A stretch of 64,000 bases of DNA from Mosigvirus mar005p1. This document shows, piece by piece, positions 6,935-35,525 of this stretch (positions are counted from its first letter, which is position 1; each line of letters starts with the position of its first letter). The notes under the pieces were generated by a model that saw nothing but the letters and a program-made list of their open reading frames with translations, ran no database searches and had not been told where the DNA came from. A program made the position numbers and the translations under genes. The stretch lies in sequence record OZ035759.1; one strand, written 5' to 3'.

Positions 6935-7360
6935 TTAACTTAAACGTCTTTCTAAATATTCAATGTATTCTGCGGCTGCTTGCATCAGGTTACCTTCATA
7001 GCCGTCGTTATTTTCTTGTCCGGCTAATTTAGCTAATGCATAAGAAATTCGTTCACCTTCGAATTCACCAAGTTTACTACCTAGCACATCCGCAATATCA
7101 GCCGAATCAATTTCTTCGAGTTCATCTATTGAATGTGATTCCCAGAAGCACCAAAGAGAAGTATCACGGTCATAGATGCAAAGTTTCTCACCAGTGTTCA
7201 ACATCACTTCAATAATGCCATGGTCGCCATAACCATCTTCGGTCGTAGTACCAATTACCTTGATGATTGTATCTTTCTTTAATTCAGGAAACTTGACTTG
7301 TAGTTCTTCATCTTCTTTAACAATCTTGAACCATTTACCGCGAGTTTCAGAAATATTCAT
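6935..7360 (-). CDS. hypothetical protein (141 aa), pin-position ORF
   Basis: Start moved to ATG at 7358-7360 (MNISETRGKW); N-terminal extension in track ORF is low-complexity. Confidence 0.5.
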   Translation of the reverse strand: MNISETRGKWFKIVKEDEELQVKFPELKKDTIIKVIGTTTEDGYGDHGIIEVMLNTGEKLCIYDRDTSLWCFWESHSIDELEEIDSADIADVLGSKLGEFEGERISYALAKLAGQENNDGYEGNLMQAAAEYIEYLERRLS

Positions 7361-12073: not shown

Positions 12074-12601
12074 TTATGCGTGAACCGTCTTTAAACGTTC
12101 TTCAAATTTCCGAAGAGTACTAATACGTTCTGCTTTCTGTTTTGTATAGTTTGCAATACGTTCTGAAGTGAGAGCGTATCGTTCGTTTACTGTTTCTTTC
12201 ATGAAGTCAGGGATTTCACGAGAAGCTTTAATTTCATCAAACTTATCGAGTACTGCCTGGTCTTCAGCGATTAAATTTTCGTACATCTCGATATCTTTCT
12301 TGATAAACTCGATATCTTCCTGGGTTACTTTGGATAAACGAGATGCTTTATCCTTTTTGTACTGCTCGTTAGTTTCACGAGACCAGAATAATGTACGTTT
12401 TTTGTTAGTGTTTTTGTAGACTTCCACAATTCCAACTGAATCGATGATAACAATCCAATTCCAGCGAGATTTGAAAATCTGACCTCCGTCCACGGTAATC
12501 TCGTTACCATAAGCAACGTCATTAAAGAACTTGCTTTGTGCTTCAGATTTAAATTTACCGTCGTTATAATTTACCAGGTTGAAAATATCTTTAGCGTTCA
12601 T
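12074..12601 (-). CDS. hypothetical protein (175 aa)
   Basis: ORF with ATG; C-terminal helical region. Confidence 0.6.
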   Translation of the reverse strand: MNAKDIFNLVNYNDGKFKSEAQSKFFNDVAYGNEITVDGGQIFKSRWNWIVIIDSVGIVEVYKNTNKKRTLFWSRETNEQYKKDKASRLSKVTQEDIEFIKKDIEMYENLIAEDQAVLDKFDEIKASREIPDFMKETVNERYALTSERIANYTKQKAERISTLRKFEERLKTVHA

Positions 12602-12659
12602 GTTTTACCTCCAGTAGTTGATAGGTCTATAATAACATAACCATAGACCTTGTAAACAA

Positions 12660-12947
12660 CTAAAAGAAACTTTTTTCGGTATTTTTTCCACTGAACCAAA
12701 CAGACTTCGGGATTTTTTGTAATTTTTCAGATTTAAGTTTCTCTTCCTGTTCTTTCTTATATACACTCTTGTCGTACTGGAGCATCTCTATGGCATTCTT
12801 TTGCAAATGATCTAAGGTAATTAAGGCTTTAGTTTTTCCTTTCAAGGAAGAGTCCTGGCGAACCTCCTCGCTATATTGCATCGTAGAACTAACCATACGA
12901 TGAGCATAGAGTTCGACTGCGGCTTTAATTTTTTGCATAAAATCCAT
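12660..12947 (-). CDS. hypothetical protein (95 aa)
   Basis: ORF; Lys/Glu-rich. Confidence 0.5.
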   Translation of the reverse strand: MDFMQKIKAAVELYAHRMVSSTMQYSEEVRQDSSLKGKTKALITLDHLQKNAIEMLQYDKSVYKKEQEEKLKSEKLQKIPKSVWFSGKNTEKSFF

Positions 12948-13084
12948 AACATATCCTCTTTGATTTGTACATCATTATTTTAAATATTTCTATGCCCTCA
13001 GTAGGTTCCTGGTGTCCTTCTTTGAGGTAAGCCATATGATTATTCATCTTTATGGCTTTTGTTACCTCAGAACTTCCTATAAGC

Positions 13085-14086: not shown

Positions 14087-14140
14087 TTCGTTTCGATAGG
14101 TCTATAATAACATATCCTAAAAGCATGTACACTACTTTTT

Positions 14141-14180
14141 AAAAATATTTTAACCCCCTAAAGGGACCCGAAGGTCCCCA
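14141..14180 (-). terminator. hairpin (GGGACC-CGAA-GGTCCC) downstream of secreted-protein gene
   Basis: 6-bp GC stem with CGAA loop plus adjacent CCC/GGG pairing; U-tract interrupted. Confidence 0.4.
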
Positions 14181-14183
14181 CAT

Positions 14184-14465
14184 TTACTTATCGCACTTAG
14201 CAACATAATTAGGCATATCACAGAATACAGAGCGAGTAACTACTCGGCCCTTTGACCATGCTTCAGTTGCTTGTCCGGCCGTGCTATTAATATAGCTTGA
14301 TTTGATATTCTCAATACCCTGAGAATGTGATGCATTTACCGAACCATTGGAAGGCCCAGAAGACTGGTTACCACCAGCTCCTGCACTACCGCCGCCTGGA
14401 CCTGTGGTAGCACCAACAGAGAATGCCATCATTACTGCGAATAAACCAATTACTAATTTTTTCAT
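14184..14465 (-). CDS. secreted Gly/Ser-rich small protein (93 aa)
   Basis: Signal peptide MKKLVIGLFAVMMAFSVGA, then GPGGGSAGAGGNQSSGPSNGS, two C-terminal Cys; late-type TATAAATA upstream; hairpin downstream. Confidence 0.6.
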   Translation of the reverse strand: MKKLVIGLFAVMMAFSVGATTGPGGGSAGAGGNQSSGPSNGSVNASHSQGIENIKSSYINSTAGQATEAWSKGRVVTRSVFCDMPNYVAKCDK

Positions 14466-16508: not shown

Positions 16509-16722
16509 TTAAAGTTTCAACAAAATTCACCAAATCATTCTTACGAGCATCAACCTGATTTCTATAAAAATTAAATAAGATCCATCAATTTATTAGCTTG
16601 TTCACGGGTCATTTTACCGTACTCGTTTCAATAAGATTCACTATGCCGTTTACCATGTTATAAGTAAACATCGGATAATTGTATTGTACTATAACATAAG
16701 CGATAAGCAAAAGTTTCATTTT
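16509..16722 (-). pseudogene. possible frameshifted remnant of a small early gene (or short 35-aa hydrophobic peptide gene)
   Basis: Early promoter at 16741-16777 then GGAGAACAAA-ATG at 16720-16722 opening a 35-codon ORF; two further short frames downstream read as a continuation if shifted; no ORF of 60 aa or more in this gap. Confidence 0.25.
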
Positions 16723-16740
16723 GTTCTCCATTTGTTTTGG

Positions 16741-16777
16741 TAGGACTACTATAACATAGTCCTACCAAGATGTAAAC
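16741..16777 (-). promoter_or_regulatory. early promoter with perfect palindrome TAGGACTA-N8-TAGTCCTA over the -10
   Basis: Minus strand GTTTAC-N18-TATAGT; one of four near-identical copies. Confidence 0.6.
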
Positions 16778-17230: not shown

Positions 17231-17265
17231 AGATGCCAAAAAGCCCCGACCTTTCGGAAGGGGCT
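17231..17265 (-). terminator. rho-independent terminator after rI
   Basis: Minus strand AGCCCCTTCCGAAAGGTCGGGGCT followed by TTTTTGG. Confidence 0.6.
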
Positions 17266-17271
17266 AGTAAA

Positions 17272-20407: not shown

Positions 20408-20463
20408 TTTGATTTCTCCTCTAGTTGACAGATCTATAGTAACACAACTAGAGGAGAAGTAAA

Positions 20464-20763
20464 CTACTCTTTGAAAGGAATTAACTTTTTAACTGCTTTA
20501 GATACTTCGTCACGAACCTGGTGGAAGTTCTTGAGCTGTTCAAGGCGTTGTTCGTAATACGCAATCTCATCTTCTTCAAGACAATCGTCAGCGTCTTCTT
20601 TCAGATATGCCTTGTACTCATTAAAGAGGGCCCATAGGCGGTTCTCAAAGTCATCAAGGCTTTGAATTTTCTTGTGCTTCGGAACAAGGCCAAAAGGATT
20701 GCTTTCAGTTATGCGTCGAGATGCTTCATAATGAGTTCCAAAGCCTGATAGGATTTGAGCCAT
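20464..20763 (-). CDS. hypothetical protein (99 aa), regB-denV interval
   Basis: ATG at 20761-20763 with GAGGAAA SD; by gene order probably a vs.x-type ORF. Confidence 0.5.
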
Positions 20764-22606: not shown

Positions 22607-22936
22607 TTATACTCTAGGCTTTTGAGCTTGTTTGGTATTGGATTCCCATGCGGCTTTGGTAATTTTGTTAGCGGCATAACCAAAGGCATTAGATAGAACA
22701 CCTTTAGAGTTGAATACATCCAATCCAATAAGTACACCGGCTGTGTTAAATTTAGGAGCAAAGTACGCATTAGTTTTAGAAAGAGCTTTTTTCAATTCAG
22801 GGTCTTGAACCAAGCCATCAAAAACGCCTTTACTATTTACTTTATATGTTACTTTGGGATTTTTACCTTCTTCGATAGCAGCTTTCTGTTCCGCAGATAA
22901 TGTAACTTCAGTGATAAACTCCTGATATGTTTTCAT
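22607..22936 (-). CDS. internal (capsid-targeted) protein, IP-like
   Basis: N-terminal capsid targeting sequence MKTYQEFITE (T4 consensus MKTYQEFIAE). Confidence 0.65.
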   Translation of the reverse strand: MKTYQEFITEVTLSAEQKAAIEEGKNPKVTYKVNSKGVFDGLVQDPELKKALSKTNAYFAPKFNTAGVLIGLDVFNSKGVLSNAFGYAANKITKAAWESNTKQAQKPRV

Positions 22937-22961: not shown

Positions 22962-23276
22962 TTATTCTTTAGGGAAGTTTTTAGAGTATGCATCATAAAG
23001 TTTATTACCAATACGGCGGAAGACTTTAGCTGCAAAACGGTTTTCAGGGTTTTTAATCATAATTTGCATCATGTAAGTTCCTGCATCCGAAAGAGCTTCT
23101 TCATAGTACCCATTAATTTCTTTAAGAGTCCTACGTTTACCACCAGGACCATCAACAGTAATTTTCCATTTACCTGTAGAAGTGCGGCTCGGTGGCTCAA
23201 CTTGTTCAATCCAAATATAACCACCTTCAACGCGTTGGTTGGCGGATTCTGCAATAAATTCTTTATACGTTTTCAT
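22962..23276 (-). CDS. internal (capsid-targeted) protein, IP-like
   Basis: N-terminal MKTYKEFIAE; own early promoter. Confidence 0.65.
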   Translation of the reverse strand: MKTYKEFIAESANQRVEGGYIWIEQVEPPSRTSTGKWKITVDGPGGKRRTLKEINGYYEEALSDAGTYMMQIMIKNPENRFAAKVFRRIGNKLYDAYSKNFPKE

Positions 23277-23340: not shown

Positions 23341-23601
23341 TTAAGCTTTACCGCCAGAAATAATTCCGAAGTTGTTAAAATCATATCCAATATCGTCAAC
23401 ATCTACTTTAGGGCTTGCTACAACATAAGCAATTTCACTACGTTTTGCATAGGTGTTGATTTCTTTACCATCGCCACCTAAGAAAGAATACCCATTACGT
23501 TTTAATGAGCCAAAGTCTTCGGCATCACCAACGAAAGCTTTAACTTTAAATTTAGGACCTTTGGCAACTGCTTCAGCGATAAATTCTTGATACATTTTCA
23601 T
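23341..23601 (-). CDS. internal (capsid-targeted) protein, IP-like
   Basis: ATG at 23599-23601 gives MKMYQEFIAE; AAGGA SD. Confidence 0.6.
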   Translation of the reverse strand: MKMYQEFIAEAVAKGPKFKVKAFVGDAEDFGSLKRNGYSFLGGDGKEINTYAKRSEIAYVVASPKVDVDDIGYDFNNFGIISGGKA

Positions 23602-24080: not shown

Positions 24081-24362
24081 CTATTTTTCTGAAGCGCCTG
24101 AAATATATTTTTCAAGACGTTGTTTCATCAGCGAGCCGTTCTTAGCGATTTCTTCCGGTTTATCGCACATACGTAACAAGGCTTCAAGCTTAGCGATATC
24201 GCTGGTACGTTCAAATTTGCGAGTATCTATCTTACTAGCAAGTTCAGAAATACGTGCTAGTAGACTTTCGGCTTCAACCAAAGCTGCACCTAGCTTAGTT
24301 GCAAATGTGTCAGTAGCTTCGTTAAGAATAGATTCTGATAAAAATTCACTATATGTTTTCAT
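24081..24362 (-). CDS. internal (capsid-targeted) protein, IP-like
   Basis: ATG at 24360-24362 gives [10 protein letters not shown]; start overlaps lysozyme stop. Confidence 0.6.
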
Positions 24363-24881: not shown

Positions 24882-25340
24882 TTATAGGAGGGTAGTGAGC
24901 ACCTTATATAATGATTTACCCATTACATATTCCCATTGAGAAGGTTTAATTAAAGCGAATGCATCAAATTCAGGAATCTGTCGTCCGTCTGGGAATGTAT
25001 GATAGGAATTACAAACACTGTTTCTGAATTGCTCGTGCTCTACAGGGATGGTATATAGGAACAGATGAATATTCTTATTATCTGAGTAATGATGTTCACC
25101 TAGGTCTTTCAGGAAGGCAGGGTCATATTGTGTAAACCCAGTTTCTTCTTCGCATTCACGAATAGCGGCTTCAATAGGAGATTCACCGGGCTCGACACGT
25201 CCTTTAGGAATATCCCACCGATGAGCTAAAGAACCTTTAGGACGAGAACCAGTTACACGCCCCATGAATAATTCTTTATCTTCGGTAAGGAAAATAATAC
25301 CGGCTGATAGTTCTTTCACTTTATTTTTCTTACTCATCAT
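24882..25340 (-). CDS. nudE: Nudix hydrolase
   Basis: Nudix box GRVEPGESPIEAAIRECEEETGF; immediately follows e as in T4. Confidence 0.8.
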   Translation of the reverse strand: MMSKKNKVKELSAGIIFLTEDKELFMGRVTGSRPKGSLAHRWDIPKGRVEPGESPIEAAIRECEEETGFTQYDPAFLKDLGEHHYSDNKNIHLFLYTIPVEHEQFRNSVCNSYHTFPDGRQIPEFDAFALIKPSQWEYVMGKSLYKVLTTLL

Positions 25341-25566
25341 CTCGGCCCCATGATTTGGCCATTAATTCGGACATAAATTCTTCAATGCGCGTTTCTTTAG
25401 ATGGACTTTCACTATTAGAGACCGCAAGTTTGTAATCTGCAATAGGACAGAACATATCAAGGTCCATATTAAGATCGTCTTTGATTTTTTCTTCTGACAC
25501 ATCTTTATCGTATGTGTACAGATAACTATCACATGATTCTGATTTAATGTAAATTGCTATACTCAT
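25330..25566 (-). CDS. hypothetical acidic protein (78 aa)
   Basis: ATG at 25564-25566 (MSIAIYIKS). Confidence 0.45.
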   Translation of the reverse strand: MSIAIYIKSESCDSYLYTYDKDVSEEKIKDDLNMDLDMFCPIADYKLAVSNSESPSKETRIEEFMSELMAKSWGRDDE

Positions 25567-26054
25567 CTCAAATTCCTGCATTCGGTAATAAAACGTTCAA
25601 CTTCATTATTCTTGGCTTTTATCTTGTCTTTATGTTCTTGTAAACTACTTTTAACAAGATTAATAATGATGCCTACAGTACCTCCACCAATAATACCACC
25701 AACAACACTTATGATAATAGATGCTAATAAGATAGCAATAATATCAACAAAACCGAAAGAACTCACCTTAGTACTGAAAAACCATACCGACGGTACAAAT
25801 ATAATCCATCCTGTTATCCATTGGCACTTATTGAAAAACTTTTCAAGCTCAGCTTGAGTTGTTCGTATTACTTCATCGATAGGTTGATATCCATTAATGT
25901 ATCTGTTCACAATAATACCTGCTGGCTGGTCGATTTTAAATTCTTGGCAAATATGTTTCACTAAGTAGGATGGACATCCTGTCCAATCCACTGAATAGTA
26001 CGAAATACCTTCATTGCCGTCGTCTATATTAGACCAATATGTTTTGTTAATCAT
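25563..26054 (-). CDS. membrane protein (163 aa), C-terminal FITECR motif family
   Basis: Two TM helices; Gly-rich GGIIGGGTVG; C-terminus ERFITECRNLR. Confidence 0.6.
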   Translation of the reverse strand: MINKTYWSNIDDGNEGISYYSVDWTGCPSYLVKHICQEFKIDQPAGIIVNRYINGYQPIDEVIRTTQAELEKFFNKCQWITGWIIFVPSVWFFSTKVSSFGFVDIIAILLASIIISVVGGIIGGGTVGIIINLVKSSLQEHKDKIKAKNNEVERFITECRNLR

Positions 26055-26740
26055 TACCAGCCTTCCATAGGGAATTCCAGATAAACTTGGGCATTGACAC
26101 GAATTTCATTGGTAATCTTTTTAACTCGGTCTGTATTACGAGATACACGTCCGAACCAACGCCATCCGTTACTAATTGCACGAGAACCAGTGTGCCATGT
26201 TTGCCAATCAAACTGAAGAAGAGTACGATCTGGAGCTTCCCATTTCTCTAGTTCACCTTTTTCAATTTTTTCGAGGACTTCTTTGTGCCACTGGCGATAG
26301 ATAAGTTCGCCATCAGGAATCTGACTGAACTCTGCAGTTCCTGTTGCAAAATGAGTAGGACACACGTCAGCGTTAACAAGACCAAGAATATGTTCAGAAT
26401 GGTAACGAGGGTTGTCATAGTCAGGTTGTCCTGCAGTAATAAAGTGTTGACCAACTGGAATATCAGGGCGTGGAACATCGTCATGGTGATATCCAGGAAT
26501 AGCAGGGTACCAGCCAGGCATCAGCATGTGGACTCGTGAATCAAATACTACATCCGAGTCTTTCCAATCGTCAGGAAGATTTTGGATAAAGCTACGAGTA
26601 ATTGGGCCGCCATTATCAAAAGCAAAATTCAAATCGCAGTTAAAGAACATAGGCTCGTTTTTAATCTGGTCGTTTTTAATCGCATGAGCAAAACCACCTA
26701 CTGCACGAGCTTGACTATTAAACACTTTAGAACTATTCAT
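26054..26740 (-). CDS. hypothetical protein (228 aa), His/Asp-rich
   Basis: ATG; GWYPAIPGYHHDDVPRP segment; no confident family. Confidence 0.6.
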   Translation of the reverse strand: MNSSKVFNSQARAVGGFAHAIKNDQIKNEPMFFNCDLNFAFDNGGPITRSFIQNLPDDWKDSDVVFDSRVHMLMPGWYPAIPGYHHDDVPRPDIPVGQHFITAGQPDYDNPRYHSEHILGLVNADVCPTHFATGTAEFSQIPDGELIYRQWHKEVLEKIEKGELEKWEAPDRTLLQFDWQTWHTGSRAISNGWRWFGRVSRNTDRVKKITNEIRVNAQVYLEFPMEGW

Positions 26741-26741
26741 A

Positions 26742-27047
26742 TTATTTTCCTCGGCATTCTTTAATGAAATTTTCTAGATTGGTAGATTCAATAGCTTTTT
26801 TACGAGCTTCTGCGTGTTCTTCTTCGGACAATTTACGTTTATAATTGACCCAGACATTATGGTCGAAACCAGACGTGGCATATAATAACAAAGCTCCAAC
26901 GAATAGCAAAAATGGTGATAAAAATATACAACCAGGAACACCATCCATACTGTAAGCCTTTTGTAATACTGCAACAGAAAGAGTTGCGTAAAAAGGTGAT
27001 GCAAGTATTGTTAAAAGACCAATTCGATTGGTTTCTGTTAATTTCAT
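26742..27047 (-). CDS. membrane protein (101 aa), C-terminal FIKECR motif family
   Basis: Two TM helices; C-terminus ENFIKECRGK. Confidence 0.55.
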   Translation of the reverse strand: MKLTETNRIGLLTILASPFYATLSVAVLQKAYSMDGVPGCIFLSPFLLFVGALLLYATSGFDHNVWVNYKRKLSEEEHAEARKKAIESTNLENFIKECRGK

Positions 27048-27068
27048 AATATTCTCCTCATGTTTTAA

Positions 27069-27105
27069 TAGGACTACTATAACATAGTCCTATAATTGTG
27101 TAAAC
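27069..27105 (-). promoter_or_regulatory. early promoter with TAGGACTA palindrome (copy 2)
   Basis: Same module upstream of the 26742-27047 gene. Confidence 0.6.
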
Positions 27106-28102: not shown

Positions 28103-28354
28103 TTAAATTTCACGACATGCGATATTATATTCATCCCAGAGGTCATCATGTGAAGCCTCTACCAATGGAACGATTGTACCGTTTATGTCTTCATTATAAG
28201 GGCAAATTGTACAGTGCGCATCTTCGAATCGGATGCCTTTGTGTTCAGATTTTTTATAACGCATATCGAATATCTTTGCAAACTTTTCACGAGTAATGGT
28301 TTTACCAACCACTTTGGTTCCGATACTTTCGTAATAAATCATTGTGGACTCCAT
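28103..28354 (-). CDS. hypothetical protein (83 aa)
   Basis: ORF; own early promoter at 28363-28399. Confidence 0.5.
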   Translation of the reverse strand: MESTMIYYESIGTKVVGKTITREKFAKIFDMRYKKSEHKGIRFEDAHCTICPYNEDINGTIVPLVEASHDDLWDEYNIACREI

Positions 28355-28362
28355 TTGTTTTG

Positions 28363-28399
28363 ATAGGACTACTATAACATAGCCCTATCTTGTTGTAAA
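28363..28399 (-). promoter_or_regulatory. early promoter with TAGGACTA palindrome (copy 3, one mismatch)
   Basis: Same module upstream of the 28103-28354 gene. Confidence 0.6.
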
Positions 28400-28404
28400 C
28401 TGTT

Positions 28405-30543: not shown

Positions 30544-31137
30544 TTATTTCAAAGAGTTAATATATTCTTGTACATCAGCAGAAGTGGTTTCGACACCGGC
30601 TGGAGTGCCATTGAACGTTTCAACACGAGTTAGAGTGTCTTCGATATCAACCTTAGTCAGTGCAGCGATTTCAATTACATCATCGGCCGTAGAGATACCA
30701 AGGGCATTGGCTGCTCGAGTTTCACGAATGTATTCAAGTTTGATTGCCAGGTTCTGACGAGCATCATCAAGTTCAACCACCTTACGAGCAATTTCAATTC
30801 GCATAGCGGCATACCCGTCAGCTTTTGTATTAAGTTGTTCGGCAGTTCGACGATACAGAAGACCAAGCTTAGCATGCATAGTAACATCTTGTCCTTCGGC
30901 CAGGAGCTTACGAATTTCACGTTCCTTAGAAGCGGCTTGCTTGTTCTTTTCATTAACAAGTTCGCGAATACGTTTTTCTTCATTAATAGATTTAACAGAA
31001 GCCGTTTTTAGTTCTTTGATTTGGGTAATCAACTTATCTGCAGCTGCGTTATACTGTTCTTCGACAGTCAGATTTTTAGCCATAGCAGTACCCAGTTTAG
31101 TGCGGATGAATTCAACAAGTTTCTTCAGTGTGTTCAT
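30544..31137 (-). CDS. coiled-coil protein (197 aa)
   Basis: ATG at 31135-31137 (MNTLKKL); predicted long alpha-helical coiled coil; hairpin terminator downstream. Confidence 0.6.
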
Positions 31138-31178
31138 ATTATTACCTTTCAATTGGTGGTTTATTATCCAACGAGAGC

Positions 31179-31207
31179 ATTATACTCTGCTCTCAAGAGT
31201 TTGTAAA
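31179..31207 (-). promoter_or_regulatory. early promoter (TTTACA-N17-TATAAT) with GAGAG/CTCTC inverted repeat flanking the -10
   Basis: Near-duplicate of the 1645-1673 region; upstream of the coiled-coil gene. Confidence 0.5.
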
Positions 31208-31435
31208 TTATTTTTTAATCAAATTGACATAAAACTTGGCGTCTTCAGGGTGCATACCTTCGCAGTATTCTTCAACCATGAACTTCTTAACAGCTTCATA
31301 AGGACCACTCAGATTAAGCTCAGTTGTCCAGAACTTGGAATCTTGGACTGAATCGATACGAACTTCAGGGTGGCGGTTGCGAATAACTTCTTCGGTGTAT
31401 TCATAATCAACGACATCAATACTAACTTTAGCCAT
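31208..31435 (-). CDS. hypothetical protein (75 aa)
   Basis: ORF with ATG. Confidence 0.5.
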   Translation of the reverse strand: MAKVSIDVVDYEYTEEVIRNRHPEVRIDSVQDSKFWTTELNLSGPYEAVKKFMVEEYCEGMHPEDAKFYVNLIKK

Positions 31436-31496
31436 TTTGTTTTCCTCTTGATTTGATGTGATTACTATAACATAAACTTACTTAGATGTAAATTAT

Positions 31497-31645
31497 TTCA
31501 ACGTCACCTTTAGCTGCTTTATAACCTTCAGCCCAAGATACAACAGAGTTTTTATCTGAGGATTCAAATTCAGGCATTGGACTTTCACCAATATTCACAC
31601 AGTACGTTTCTTCATTTTCATCGAACCAAATAATTAAAGTAGTCA
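31497..31645 (-). CDS. hypothetical small protein (49 aa)
   Basis: Not in ORF track (under 60 aa); ATG at 31643-31645 with GAGGAGTAAACAAA upstream; translation MTTLIIWFDENEETYCV... Confidence 0.3.
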
Positions 31646-32020: not shown

Positions 32021-32089
32021 AATATTCTCCTCATGTTTTTATAGGTCTATAGTAACACATCCCGGGAAGAAGTAAACAACTTTTTCAGT

Positions 32090-32124
32090 AAGTTATAAAC
32101 CCCCTAAAGGGGACCGAAGTCCCC
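32090..32124 (-). terminator. hairpin (GGGGAC-CGAA-GTCCCC) after IPIII-like gene
   Basis: Near-copy of the 14141-14180 element. Confidence 0.4.
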
Positions 32125-32129
32125 ATTCT

Positions 32130-32756
32130 TTACTTACGAGTTTTTGCATACTGAGCAGCGTCAGCAGCCAAACGACCTGCCTGACGAAGTTTTTCTTTAA
32201 TCGCATCGTGAAGTGGTTGAGTGTACTTCAAACCTTCGATAGTCAAATAAAGACGATAAAGGTCCGGGGTATCAAGGTTGTTGATATGTTGGCCATTACG
32301 AAGACTATTGAATTCACGAACGAGTGAAGATGTATCGGATTCAATATCACGAACAAGCGAAGATAGTTGTTTATATTTTTTTTCCAGGCTAGAAGTATCA
32401 AACTTAAGAGCAGGAGCTTTAGGAGTTGCTTTTACTTCCGGCTTAGGCTCAGGTTTTGTTATTGCTTTAGGGGTCGCAGGTTTAGGAATGGTAGGAGCAG
32501 GTTTTACTTTAGGCGAACCCGATTTAGCAGAAACACCACCACTAACAATATCTTTGAATGCTTTAGAAGCTCTGTAATATTCTTTTTGGCTGGAAGTGTC
32601 GATACCGTACATGGCTTGAACGTTTTTGAAAAACTCTGTACTAGTTTTTGTACCAGAAATAGCATCGTAAGCAGCTTGCCATTTCTCTTTTGTCATACGT
32701 ACGCCGGCTTCGGTGATTACTTCCGTTTCGGCTAAAAATTCATTAAAAGTATACAT
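32130..32756 (-). CDS. internal (capsid-targeted) protein, IPIII-like (208 aa)
   Basis: N-terminal MYTFNEFLAE resembles the capsid targeting sequence; Pro/Lys-rich middle; late TATAAATA upstream. Confidence 0.6.
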   Translation of the reverse strand: MYTFNEFLAETEVITEAGVRMTKEKWQAAYDAISGTKTSTEFFKNVQAMYGIDTSSQKEYYRASKAFKDIVSGGVSAKSGSPKVKPAPTIPKPATPKAITKPEPKPEVKATPKAPALKFDTSSLEKKYKQLSSLVRDIESDTSSLVREFNSLRNGQHINNLDTPDLYRLYLTIEGLKYTQPLHDAIKEKLRQAGRLAADAAQYAKTRK

Positions 32757-32799: not shown

Positions 32800-32830
32800 C
32801 AAAAAAAGCCCCAACCTTTCGGAAGGGGCT
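32800..32830 (-). terminator. rho-independent terminator after tRNA/stable-RNA region
   Basis: Minus strand AGCCCCTTCCGAAAGGTTGGGGCT followed by TTTTTTT; near-identical to the rI terminator. Confidence 0.65.
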
Positions 32831-32872
32831 ATACACCTTGTCGGGGTTTCCACCTACTAAGGCAAGTGTTTG

Positions 32873-34903: not shown

Positions 34904-35110
34904 TTACTCACCTTTTGCAATTTTATCCATAACAATAGCGATTAAACCGATTAGAAATGCTACTACCAATGAGATAGAGTTTTCAGTTGTTGTCAGTAGT
35001 CCACAAATGAATCCTACAAACATCGAAAAACTAAAAGCCATTGAAGCAATTACTACAGCAACATTACGAATCAGTTCAGCGCGTTTCATTTTATTTCTCC
35101 ATTTACTCAT
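34904..35110 (-). CDS. small membrane protein (68 aa)
   Basis: Two hydrophobic helices; own early promoter at 35121-35157. Confidence 0.45.
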   Translation of the reverse strand: MSKWRNKMKRAELIRNVAVVIASMAFSFSMFVGFICGLLTTTENSISLVVAFLIGLIAIVMDKIAKGE

Positions 35111-35120
35111 TTTGTTTTGA

Positions 35121-35157
35121 TAGGACTACTATAACATAGTCCTATCAGCATGTAAAC
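35121..35157 (-). promoter_or_regulatory. early promoter with TAGGACTA palindrome (copy 4)
   Basis: Same module upstream of the 34904-35110 gene. Confidence 0.6.
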
Positions 35158-35160
35158 TAC

Positions 35161-35448
35161 TTACAGAAGAGTTTTTGCAATAATTTTAAGCTGAGCTACA
35201 GAAATATGCTTAGCTTTAAACAGTGCAGTCTCTTCAGCGGGAGAGATAACAATAGTAGCGCCATCTTTCTTAGCGGACCACCCGTCTCCTAAGTAAACAG
35301 TACCTTTTACTTCTTCGCCGTCAACCAGACTAATCATTGGTTTACCCTCACGTCCTTTATTTGCTTTAATAACTTCGGAAGTAAGGGTTGCTTCGGTCAG
35401 AGTAGAAACGTTAGCAACAGGTGATATAAATTCTTTATAGGTTTTCAT
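35161..35448 (-). CDS. ipI: internal protein I-like (capsid-targeted)
   Basis: 95 aa; N-terminal MKTYKEFISP; directly upstream of 57B as T4 ipI. Confidence 0.7.
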   Translation of the reverse strand: MKTYKEFISPVANVSTLTEATLTSEVIKANKGREGKPMISLVDGEEVKGTVYLGDGWSAKKDGATIVISPAEETALFKAKHISVAQLKIIAKTLL

Positions 35449-35525
35449 TTTATTTCCTTGAGGTTGTTTATTTGATAGGATGATAGTATCACACCATCAT
35501 CCTTATGTAAACTGTTTTGTGAAAA

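Follow-up and report, generated by a model that had tools for sequence, protein, structure and literature searches.

The early region of this phage DNA carries near-identical copies of a short promoter module, each with a palindrome across its -10 element. What is the palindrome for, and why does the module recur? A sequence-only reading had taken the modules for early-promoter cassettes and had named an operator for a phage or host regulator, a cruciform-prone element, and a homology patch for cassette exchange as possible roles of the dyad. The window, by which we mean the whole stretch of 64,000 nucleotides analyzed here, is from an RB69-like Mosigvirus (Straboviridae) and shares about 96.7% identity with JN02 and mar005P1. 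It spans the region of nrdC, tk, vs, regB, denV, e, the tRNA genes, ipI, 57, 1, and 3, and its early genes all lie on the minus strand. The role that we favor for the palindrome, an RNA hairpin on read-through transcripts, was absent from the earlier options. Taken as a whole, each copy is probably a promoter-early stem-loop (PeSL) cassette of the T-even type, in which the palindrome would fold as an RNA hairpin on read-through mRNA and the copies serve as recombination junctions.

A search of the window with the 24-nt plus-strand core TAGGACTACTATAACATAGTCCTA gave exact matches at 16741, 27069, and 35121 and a one-mismatch copy, reading TAGCCCTA, at 28364; no match occurred in 100 dinucleotide-preserving shuffles. 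The four modules are therefore near-identical, as had been claimed, with the third starting one nucleotide away from the position first given for it (28363). On the minus strand, which is the coding strand, all four read GTTTAC-N18-TATAGT, again as described before. In a sigma-70 scan, all four scored 10/12, carried a TG extended -10 at -15/-14, and ranked among the top hits. Their designation as early-promoter cassettes also agreed with the C at -3/-2 and with the adjoining Shine-Dalgarno (SD) sequence and ATG of early-strand genes. The same features tie them to the T4 and RB69 early consensus (Nolan et al. 2006, PMC1524935; Liebig and Rueger 1989). That consensus has GTTTAC at -36 to -31, a -10 of the form TAnnnT with a GT-rich extension, and C at -3 to -1, and it occurs 5' of early and novel ORFs (PMC1524935). 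The complementarity between the spacer and the start site is a point of difference, as it is absent from the published descriptions that we found. Promoter activity, the start sites, and the existence of read-through RNA are predictions from these motifs. The parts of each copy are listed in the table below.

Predicted early-promoter cassettes and related promoters in the window (positions in the plus-strand numbering of the window; promoters, start sites, and promoted genes are predictions)
Feature	Span	Strand	-35	-10	5' arm	3' arm	Predicted +1	SD	ATG	Putative promoter of; remarks
Cassette copy 1	16703..16777	-	GTTTAC 16777-16772	TATAGT 16753-16748 (TG 16756-16755)	UUGGUAGGACUAU 16768-16756	GUAGUCCUACCAA 16749-16737	A 16741	GGAG 16729-16726	16719	mobD.2/tk.1/mobD.1
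Cassette copy 2	27031..27105	-	27105-27100	27081-27076	AUAGGACUAU 27093-27084	GUAGUCCUAU 27077-27068	27069	GAGG 27059-27056	27047	RB69ORF133c homologue
Cassette copy 3	28326..28400	-	28400-28395	28376-28371	GAUAGGGCUAU 28389-28379	GUAGUCCUAUC 28372-28362	28364	GGAG 28352-28349	28342	RB69ORF135c homologue; one G.U pair between arms
Cassette copy 4	35083..35157	-	35157-35152	35133-35128	UGAUAGGACUAU 35147-35136	GUAGUCCUAUCA 35129-35118	35121	GGAG 35100-35097	35089	tRNA.4/tRNA.3/tRNA.2; directly 3' of internal-protein gene ipI
Decayed fifth member	31435..31499 (repeat match 31452-31499)	-	ATTTAC	TATAGT	GTAAGTTTA (degenerate)	AATCACATC				RB69ORF145c-like gene; ATTTAC-N18-TATAGT
Sister early promoter	12601..12657	-			AGGTCTAT	ATAGACCT				Other dyad, same position; 11 pairs with G.U
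Sister early promoter	35448..35512	-			AGGATGAT	ATCATCCT				ipI; 12 pairs with G.U
Sister early promoter	31137..31208	-			TGAGAGCA	TGCTCTCG				Dyad around -10; paralogue at 1626-1687
Type-B sister promoter	20414..20464	-			TTCTCCTCTAGTTG (anti-SD, in spacer)	CAACTAGAGGAGAA (SD of downstream gene)				14-bp stem

The conserved unit is longer than the roughly 40 bp originally assigned to it. A repeat search on the four copies (71 to 100% identity) delimited a unit of about 75 nt from the -35 to the start codon, and alignment of the flanks showed that conservation spans the -35, the dyad, and the leader (TAGGACTATGTTATAGTAGTCCTAyyAAAACAaatGGAG) up to that codon. The sequences 5' of the -35 are coding, unrelated among the four cassettes, and not conserved, and the stop codon of the upstream ORF lies 0 to 15 nt before the -35; in copy 1, this stop (TAG) overlaps the -35. 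AAAAC(A/T) tracts can be seen directly 5' of the -35 in three of the four cassettes. The dyad runs from -27 to +5. The 5' arm, at -27 to -15, lies in the spacer of the promoter, the 3' arm (-8 to +5) covers the discriminator and the start site (CCTATC), and the SD (GGAG or GAGG) follows at +10 to +22, before the ATG. Arms of 8 bp had been reported; with G.U allowed, a 6-nt loop is closed by stems of 13, 10, 11, and 12 pairs in copies 1 to 4, respectively, and the mismatch in copy 3 is a sense-strand G.U pair, a variant common to RB69, LF82-3, and mar005P1. The stems are AT-rich, with G-C in 4 of 10 pairs. The two weaker relatives pointed out earlier proved to be real, perfect 8-bp dyads at the same promoter position (promoters 12657 and 35512).

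Gene names at the cassettes were taken from the mar005P1 and RB69 annotation. The homologues of ORF133c and ORF135c are RB69-specific small ORFs inserted between e.2 and e.3. At copies 1 and 3, the mechanical ORF starts (16731 and 28354) fall on the ATG within AAATGGAG, which overlaps the SD. The annotated homologues use the next in-frame ATG, at 16719 and 28342, so the two mechanical ORF lengths are 4 codons too long. About 170 bp downstream of copy 1, at 16569-16575, the window lacks a 65- to 70-bp segment of RB69 and mar005P1; the gap lies where the mobD.2 ORF (16609-16719) ends or shortly beyond it, on the side of tk.1.

The family also exceeds four copies. A fifth, decayed member in the window shares 73 to 78% identity with the family repeats, and the 3' arm of its RB69 orthologue (72340) is still intact. 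The assembled RB69 genome has 10 recognizable members, all on the early strand, and blastn with a 61-nt query found 8 to 10 places per Mosigvirus genome. Several RB69 copies precede the RB69-specific ORFs 133c, 135c, and 270c, and across the family, members stand before genes other than those for internal proteins (IP), namely, mobD.2, ORF133c, and ORF135c and, in RB69, ndd.1, frd.1, and the imm region. A scan of IMG/VR for GTTTAC-N18-TATAGT-N9-AAAACA returned 10 loci, 4 of them family members, which is too few for statistics. In the literature searched, we found no description of the RB69/Mosigvirus cassette family or of the sense-strand G.U bias presented below.

Two checks proposed in the sequence-only reading were a genome-wide search for the dyad and a comparison with T4 early promoters. 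We scanned T4 and RB69 for early promoters of the form [AG]TTTAC-N17-19-TAnnnT followed by an SD and ATG. Of the RB69 promoters, 14 of 38, and of the T4 promoters, 13 of 34, had a perfect inverted repeat of 7 bp or more whose 5' arm fell in the spacer. Spacer shuffles gave an expectation of about 1.5 and a maximum of 5 to 6 over 300 shuffles, an enrichment of about 9-fold. A second null, in which spacers were swapped among promoters, runs too high, as an anti-SD spacer can pair with any SD and arms are shared within the family; the observed counts exceeded its maximum too. By the location of the 3' arm, the dyads fall into classes: -8 to +5 (type A, which includes the four cassettes), on the SD (type B), and inside the spacer.

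In T4, orthologous promoters also have a dyad at this position, and its arms are different: a 14-bp pair, AGTTGACAAGATTA/TAATCTTGTCAACT, at P-mobD.2, ATAGGGT/ACCCTAT at P-trna.4, and TGATGAGGTA/TACCTCATCA at P-ipI. The expectation that the palindrome would recur in homologous promoters of relatives is thus borne out for the dyad and not for the sequence of its arms. Unrelated arms occupy this promoter position in T4, RB69, a Karamvirus, and Acinetobacter phage Acj61. A record for T4 bears on one such dyad: positions 133300-133313 of AF158101 (14300-14313 of L018) are annotated as a 14-nt "inverted complement of previously reported sequence," and this stretch coincides exactly with the -10-containing loop that the arms GGTAGAG/CTCTACC enclose in early promoter Pe133295. 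The inversion could be an old sequencing artifact or a real flip between inverted repeats.

We then aligned 31 distinct promoters from RB69, the window, three other Mosigviruses, a Karamvirus, T4, Acj61, and IMG/VR contigs, selected chiefly on the -10 and the four bases that follow it, with T4 57990 and RB69 145286 added by hand as known to pair. In this alignment, in which many variants are inherited and not independent, 91.2% of the cells were paired, compared to 25 to 59% with the partners slid, and 9 of 11 stem pairs changed on both sides. None of 500 shuffles matched the observed pairing and covariation values. At one position the change can be followed stepwise, from A-U in the consensus (GATAGG/CCTATC) through G.U in RB69 57662 (GGTAGG/CCTATC) to G-C in window promoter 16777 (GGTAGG/CCTACC). 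Family member RB69 76445 carries an A.C mismatch. Outside the family, the window has a two-copy promoter pair (1626-1687 and 31160-31221) that is 90% identical, with a dyad around the -10. The paralogous dyads, GAGAGA/TCTCTC and GAGAGCA/TGCTCTC, respectively, differ by a compensatory change. T4 promoters 136336 and 123093 have TATAGTAGTC without any 5' arm, indicating that the hairpin is dispensable for some promoters.

The differing T4 arms, the 9 of 11 covarying pairs, and imperfections that are mostly sense-strand G.U together show that the dyad is under selection for pairing and behaves as a structure rather than as a sequence-specific operator. A palindrome bound by a dimeric phage or host repressor that closes a subset of early promoters, the first of the roles proposed earlier, is accordingly highly improbable. 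A perfect dyad over the -10 is the textbook position for an operator, and the arms GATAGGAC/GTCCTATC recur in distant phages. Against this, the half-sites covary instead of being conserved, the T4 orthologues have wholly different arms, the imperfections are strand asymmetric (22 G.U versus 2 A.C), and the start-site consensus accounts for the conserved 3' arm; no candidate regulator was identified. In Acj61 (NC_014661, Twarogvirinae), at least four promoters (2390, 4265, 8028, and 20001) carry the arms GATAGGAC(T)/(A)GTCCTATC around TATAAT, blastn gives seven places in that genome, and the 3' arm coincides with the widely conserved start-site motif CCTATCAA.

The kinds of mismatch that the stems tolerate point to the molecule that folds. 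Over all promoters, the helix interruptions flanked by Watson-Crick pairs comprised 13 sense-strand G.U, no A.C, and no other mismatches. In the inner nine pairs of the family, we counted 246 Watson-Crick, 22 G.U, 2 A.C, and 9 other cells. The sense RNA fold was 1.8 kcal/mol more stable than the antisense fold (P = 0.0009); the folding z-scores differed only marginally between the strands (P = 0.065), so the strand argument rests on the mismatch-type counts. Such an asymmetry is not expected of a duplex operator or a two-stranded cruciform and indicates that the sense single strand folds.

This bears directly on a DNA-level structure, in which a cruciform or a non-template-strand hairpin centered at -12/-11 would modulate promoter opening, possibly as a supercoil-dependent shut-off of early promoters. 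Early-promoter shut-off is described as "not completely understood" (PMC3014915; PMC2988021), and the center of the dyad is the site where promoter melting begins. A cruciform requires both strands to fold, and the antisense strand has A.C wherever the sense strand has G.U; arms of 8 to 13 bp with a 6- to 8-nt loop and low GC content also extrude poorly. The cruciform proposed at the outset is thus disfavored. DNA hairpins tolerate G.T as well, and G.T is the least destabilizing mismatch in single-stranded DNA, too, so a fold of the non-template DNA strand stays a minor possibility. The spacer of type-B promoters, which pairs with an SD 30 to 40 nt away, makes sense for RNA only. Overall, we regard a DNA-level role as very unlikely and infer an RNA fold rather than a fold of the non-template strand.

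Most likely, the folding molecule is RNA read through from upstream promoters. In the read-through context, the minimum free energy (MFE) of the cassettes was -17 to -23 kcal/mol, with z-scores of -1.9 to -3.6 (copy 1, a 13-bp stem with an MFE of -22.9 and z of -3.6; copy 2, z of -2.8; copy 4, z of -3.5). From +1 to the ATG, the MFE was only 0 to -1.7 kcal/mol (0 kcal/mol for the own-transcript leader of copy 4), i.e., the leader is unstructured, compared to -14 to -22 kcal/mol for this region within read-through RNA. Placing the -10 at -12 to -7 predicts that transcription starts at the A of ..CCTA, in agreement with the RB69 preference for C at -3 to -1. Since this predicted start lies inside the 3' arm, the promoter's own transcript would lack the 5' arm, and only read-through RNA would form the 10- to 13-bp hairpin.

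How might such a hairpin work? In our model, a strong sigma-70 early promoter (-35 GTTTAC, extended -10 TGtTATAGT) is fused to an A-rich leader, SD, and start codon, and the palindrome would give an RNA hairpin formed only by transcripts arriving from upstream early promoters. The hairpin would partition polycistronic early mRNA at each promoter, and it may block 3'-to-5' exonucleases once RegB or RNase E/G has cut the SD or A-rich leader just downstream. The RegB/S1 site is GGAGRAYARAA (PMC1702504), and the SD and leader of copy 1, GGAGAACAAAA, fit this consensus. RegB cuts at GGAG SDs open entry sites for 3' exonucleases, and RNase II, RNase R, and PNPase enter where RegB and RNase E/G have cut (PMC3014915). 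We favor this role, in which the hairpin would act on read-through mRNA as a barrier to 3' exonucleases or as an insulator; we infer it from general RNA biology. Reduced ribosome standby binding is a further possibility, and weak attenuation by the hairpin may be an additional effect.

In the original PeSL proposal, such elements are terminators or attenuators on read-through RNA that insulate each cassette transcriptionally. The intergenic position and the sense-strand fold suit this idea, and one RB49 PeSL stem-loop cut downstream lacZ as much as rrnB T1 did (Arbiol et al., PMC2839356). However, that lacZ assay cannot tell termination from RNA processing, and the same authors call the T-even stem-loops weaker (PMC2839356). 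The cassette stems are AT-rich and are followed by AUCAAAACAAA in place of a U-run, and the four dyads were absent from the 17 terminator-like sites that an intrinsic terminator scan returned. A hairpin without a U-tract makes classical termination unlikely, and we rejected an intrinsic (rho-independent) terminator because no U-run directly follows the hairpin. All told, we hold attenuation to be an unlikely main function. A search of the window against Rfam 15 at the gathering threshold returned two tRNAs only and no match to the dyads.

An established precedent is the promoter-in-hairpin gating of T4 genes e, soc, 49, and I-TevI, in which the promoter lies in the DNA for the 5' strand of the helix, and long transcripts fold while promoter-proximal ones do not (PMC3014915). 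The cassettes share this layout. They differ in that their 3' arm stops at +3 to +5, leaving the SD, 8 to 10 nt beyond, unpaired, and in that the classical cases are late or middle promoters within early read-through transcripts, whereas the cassettes are early promoters. The SD was unpaired in the centroid folds of all four cassettes, giving no sign of its sequestration, so the well-proven logic of translational gating is not directly applicable to them.

In sister promoters of type B, the same 5'-arm position pairs with the SD and would gate translation as in the classical T4 promoter-in-hairpin design. Besides promoter 20464, this arrangement occurs on the minus strand at 24079-24026 (10 bp), 17226-17175 (8 bp), and 32077-32027 (6 bp with G.U), and all four pair their spacer with the SD as in the T4 examples. 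In these four promoters, the spacer is complementary to the SD of the driven gene. The SD and the RegB site would be masked in read-through RNA and free in RNA that starts at the promoter itself. The same anti-SD spacer design is seen in T4 at P-denV, P-regB, and P-nrdC.8. One may go further and suppose that about one-third of T-even early promoters lie inside hairpins that only read-through RNA can form, with two classes (SD sequestering and SD adjacent) making up a genome-wide "transcript-origin code." The hairpin-nested promoters meant are those of T4, the RB69-like phages, the Karamvirus, and Acj61. We put this forward tentatively, as a generalization that may well not hold.

The second part of the question, why the module recurs, leads to recombination. 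The near-identical direct repeats, with a 24- to 30-bp identical core in about 75 bp of similarity, make the copies recombination junctions, and comparison of genomes shows that they act as such in homologous recombination, deleting, inserting, or swapping the small genes that they flank. In O157 typing phage 3, the order is ipI, module, IP-like gene, module, and tRNA.4 onward. In typing phage 6 (160.6 kb, conspecific with phage 3), it is ipI, module, IP-like gene, module, and ORF133c. The junction module of phage 6 has chimeric flanks, the left from the P-tRNA.4 module and the right (TTaaaacatgaggagaatattATGaaatta) from module 2, which places the crossover within the shared ATAGGACTATGTTATAGTAGTCCTAT. 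The event removed about 8 kb, including tRNA genes and e.3 to e.8, and the orthologue of copy 4 in typing phage 3 was one partner in it. In mar005P1 and many other genomes, a 275-bp cassette (promoter body plus a 66-aa ORF) is inserted into module 2, separating its -35 from its dyad (window 27093-27099) and leaving a degenerate TGTACA -35 on the downstream copy. In phage WFK, window positions 25166-27099 are replaced, and the end of the replacement falls between the dyad and the -35 of module 2. Three independent structural variants break within module 2 at 27093-27105. The crossover of the 8-kb deletion in the shared core and the two other variants breaking in module 2 strongly support the proposal that the modules are homology patches for cassette exchange. 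Breakpoints of the window relative to RB69 or mar005P1 also lie off the modules, at 6935, 12908-13084, 18604, and 31722, so the modules are frequent but not exclusive junctions.

Other repeats lie at junctions as well. At the ipI locus, RB69 has an extra IP gene and module, and there the junction is in a repeat of the SD plus the capsid-targeting sequence. A 30-nt gene start is found five times in the window (22907-22936, 23247-23276, 23572-23601, 24333-24362, and 35419-35448). It encodes MKTYQEFI..., which is the capsid-targeting sequence of internal proteins, and indicates a cluster of IP-like genes at 22.6 to 24.4 kb besides ipI; such coding repeats at IP gene starts are also recombination junctions (RB69 ORF156c/ipI). 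In addition, the window has two pairs of G+C-rich hairpin repeats with UUCG/GAAG-type loops, one at 17238-17266 and 32803-32831 (AAAAAGCCCCGACCTTTCGGAAGGGGCT, 97% identical) and the other at 14136-14190 and 32082-32136 (CCCCTAAAGGGACCCGAAGGTCCC). These repeats stand directly 5' of early promoters, as in PeSLs that combine a terminator with a promoter, and a 2.9-kb deletion in phage WFK ends exactly at 32803.

That the copies recombine raises the possibility that the dyad is a functionless by-product, one promoter having been spread or homogenized by recombination or gene conversion, with palindromy kept by templated repair of a quasi-palindrome. T4 recombines at homologies down to 6 to 10 bp (PMC9391042), the cassettes are recombination substrates, and the 3' arm is largely the conserved motif CCTATCAA, found in Acj61 also. 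Dyads with unrelated arms at the same position in T4, RB69, a Karamvirus, and Acj61, at about 9-fold over shuffles, speak against a single spreading sequence. Compensatory changes and sense-only G.U are likewise unexpected, as templated correction would give palindromes perfect on both strands. We give the by-product explanation little chance and return to the PeSL reading, with a hairpin in read-through RNA.

By anatomy, copy number, setting, and behavior, the cassettes belong to the known PeSL class (Arbiol et al. 2010, PMC2839356; Comeau et al. 2014, PMC4122927). PeSLs likewise join an early promoter, a stem-loop, an SD, and a start codon; their stem-loop is commonly between the -35 and -10 or over the -10, and G-T pairs have been noted in the stems. 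They occur in many copies, chiefly among small non-essential ORFs in hyperplastic regions, and lie at insertion, deletion, and replacement junctions of close relatives, with the crossover localizable within the element; mini-circles arising between adjacent elements are a further trait of the class. The described PeSLs of RB49 and phi1 differ in having TTGACA promoters, G/C-rich stems, and demonstrated terminator-like activity; those of PST and T4 are drawn with the stem-loop just 5' of the promoter, and nt-1/KVP40 elements have also been described. The Mosigvirus cassettes are unlike these in their AT-rich stems without a U-tract. Closer relatives are the elements at the T-even IP locus, which a later summary (Repoila et al. 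1994, as cited in PMC2839356) presents as PeSL analogues on T4 early promoters with weaker, AT-rich stem-loops. In that summary description, on which the likeness is drawn, the stem-loops are of variable size and flank shuffled IP genes; in the window, copy 4 and promoter 35512 flank ipI, and the RB69 and typing-phage variants gain or lose IP-like genes between modules. The Mosigvirus family differs from the IP-locus elements, as far as they are summarized there, in serving non-IP genes too.

T4-like phages such as Mosigvirus are widely used in therapy and typing. The cassettes account for where these genomes break, lose tRNA and accessory genes, and gain internal-protein genes, the 8-kb loss in an O157 typing phage being an example of such cassette-linked change, and they predict more deletions between any two direct copies. 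They also mark early transcription units for annotation and offer compact promoter-leader parts for engineering, and the sense-strand G.U bias lets one argue cheaply, from sequence alone, for action of PeSL-type stem-loops at the RNA level. If the transcript-origin code were true, promoter-proximal (immediate-early) and read-through (delayed-early) copies of a cistron would differ in translation, RegB sensitivity, or stability. The gene e/soc/49 paradigm would then extend to the whole early program, with the four-copy family as the allele that spread most recently.
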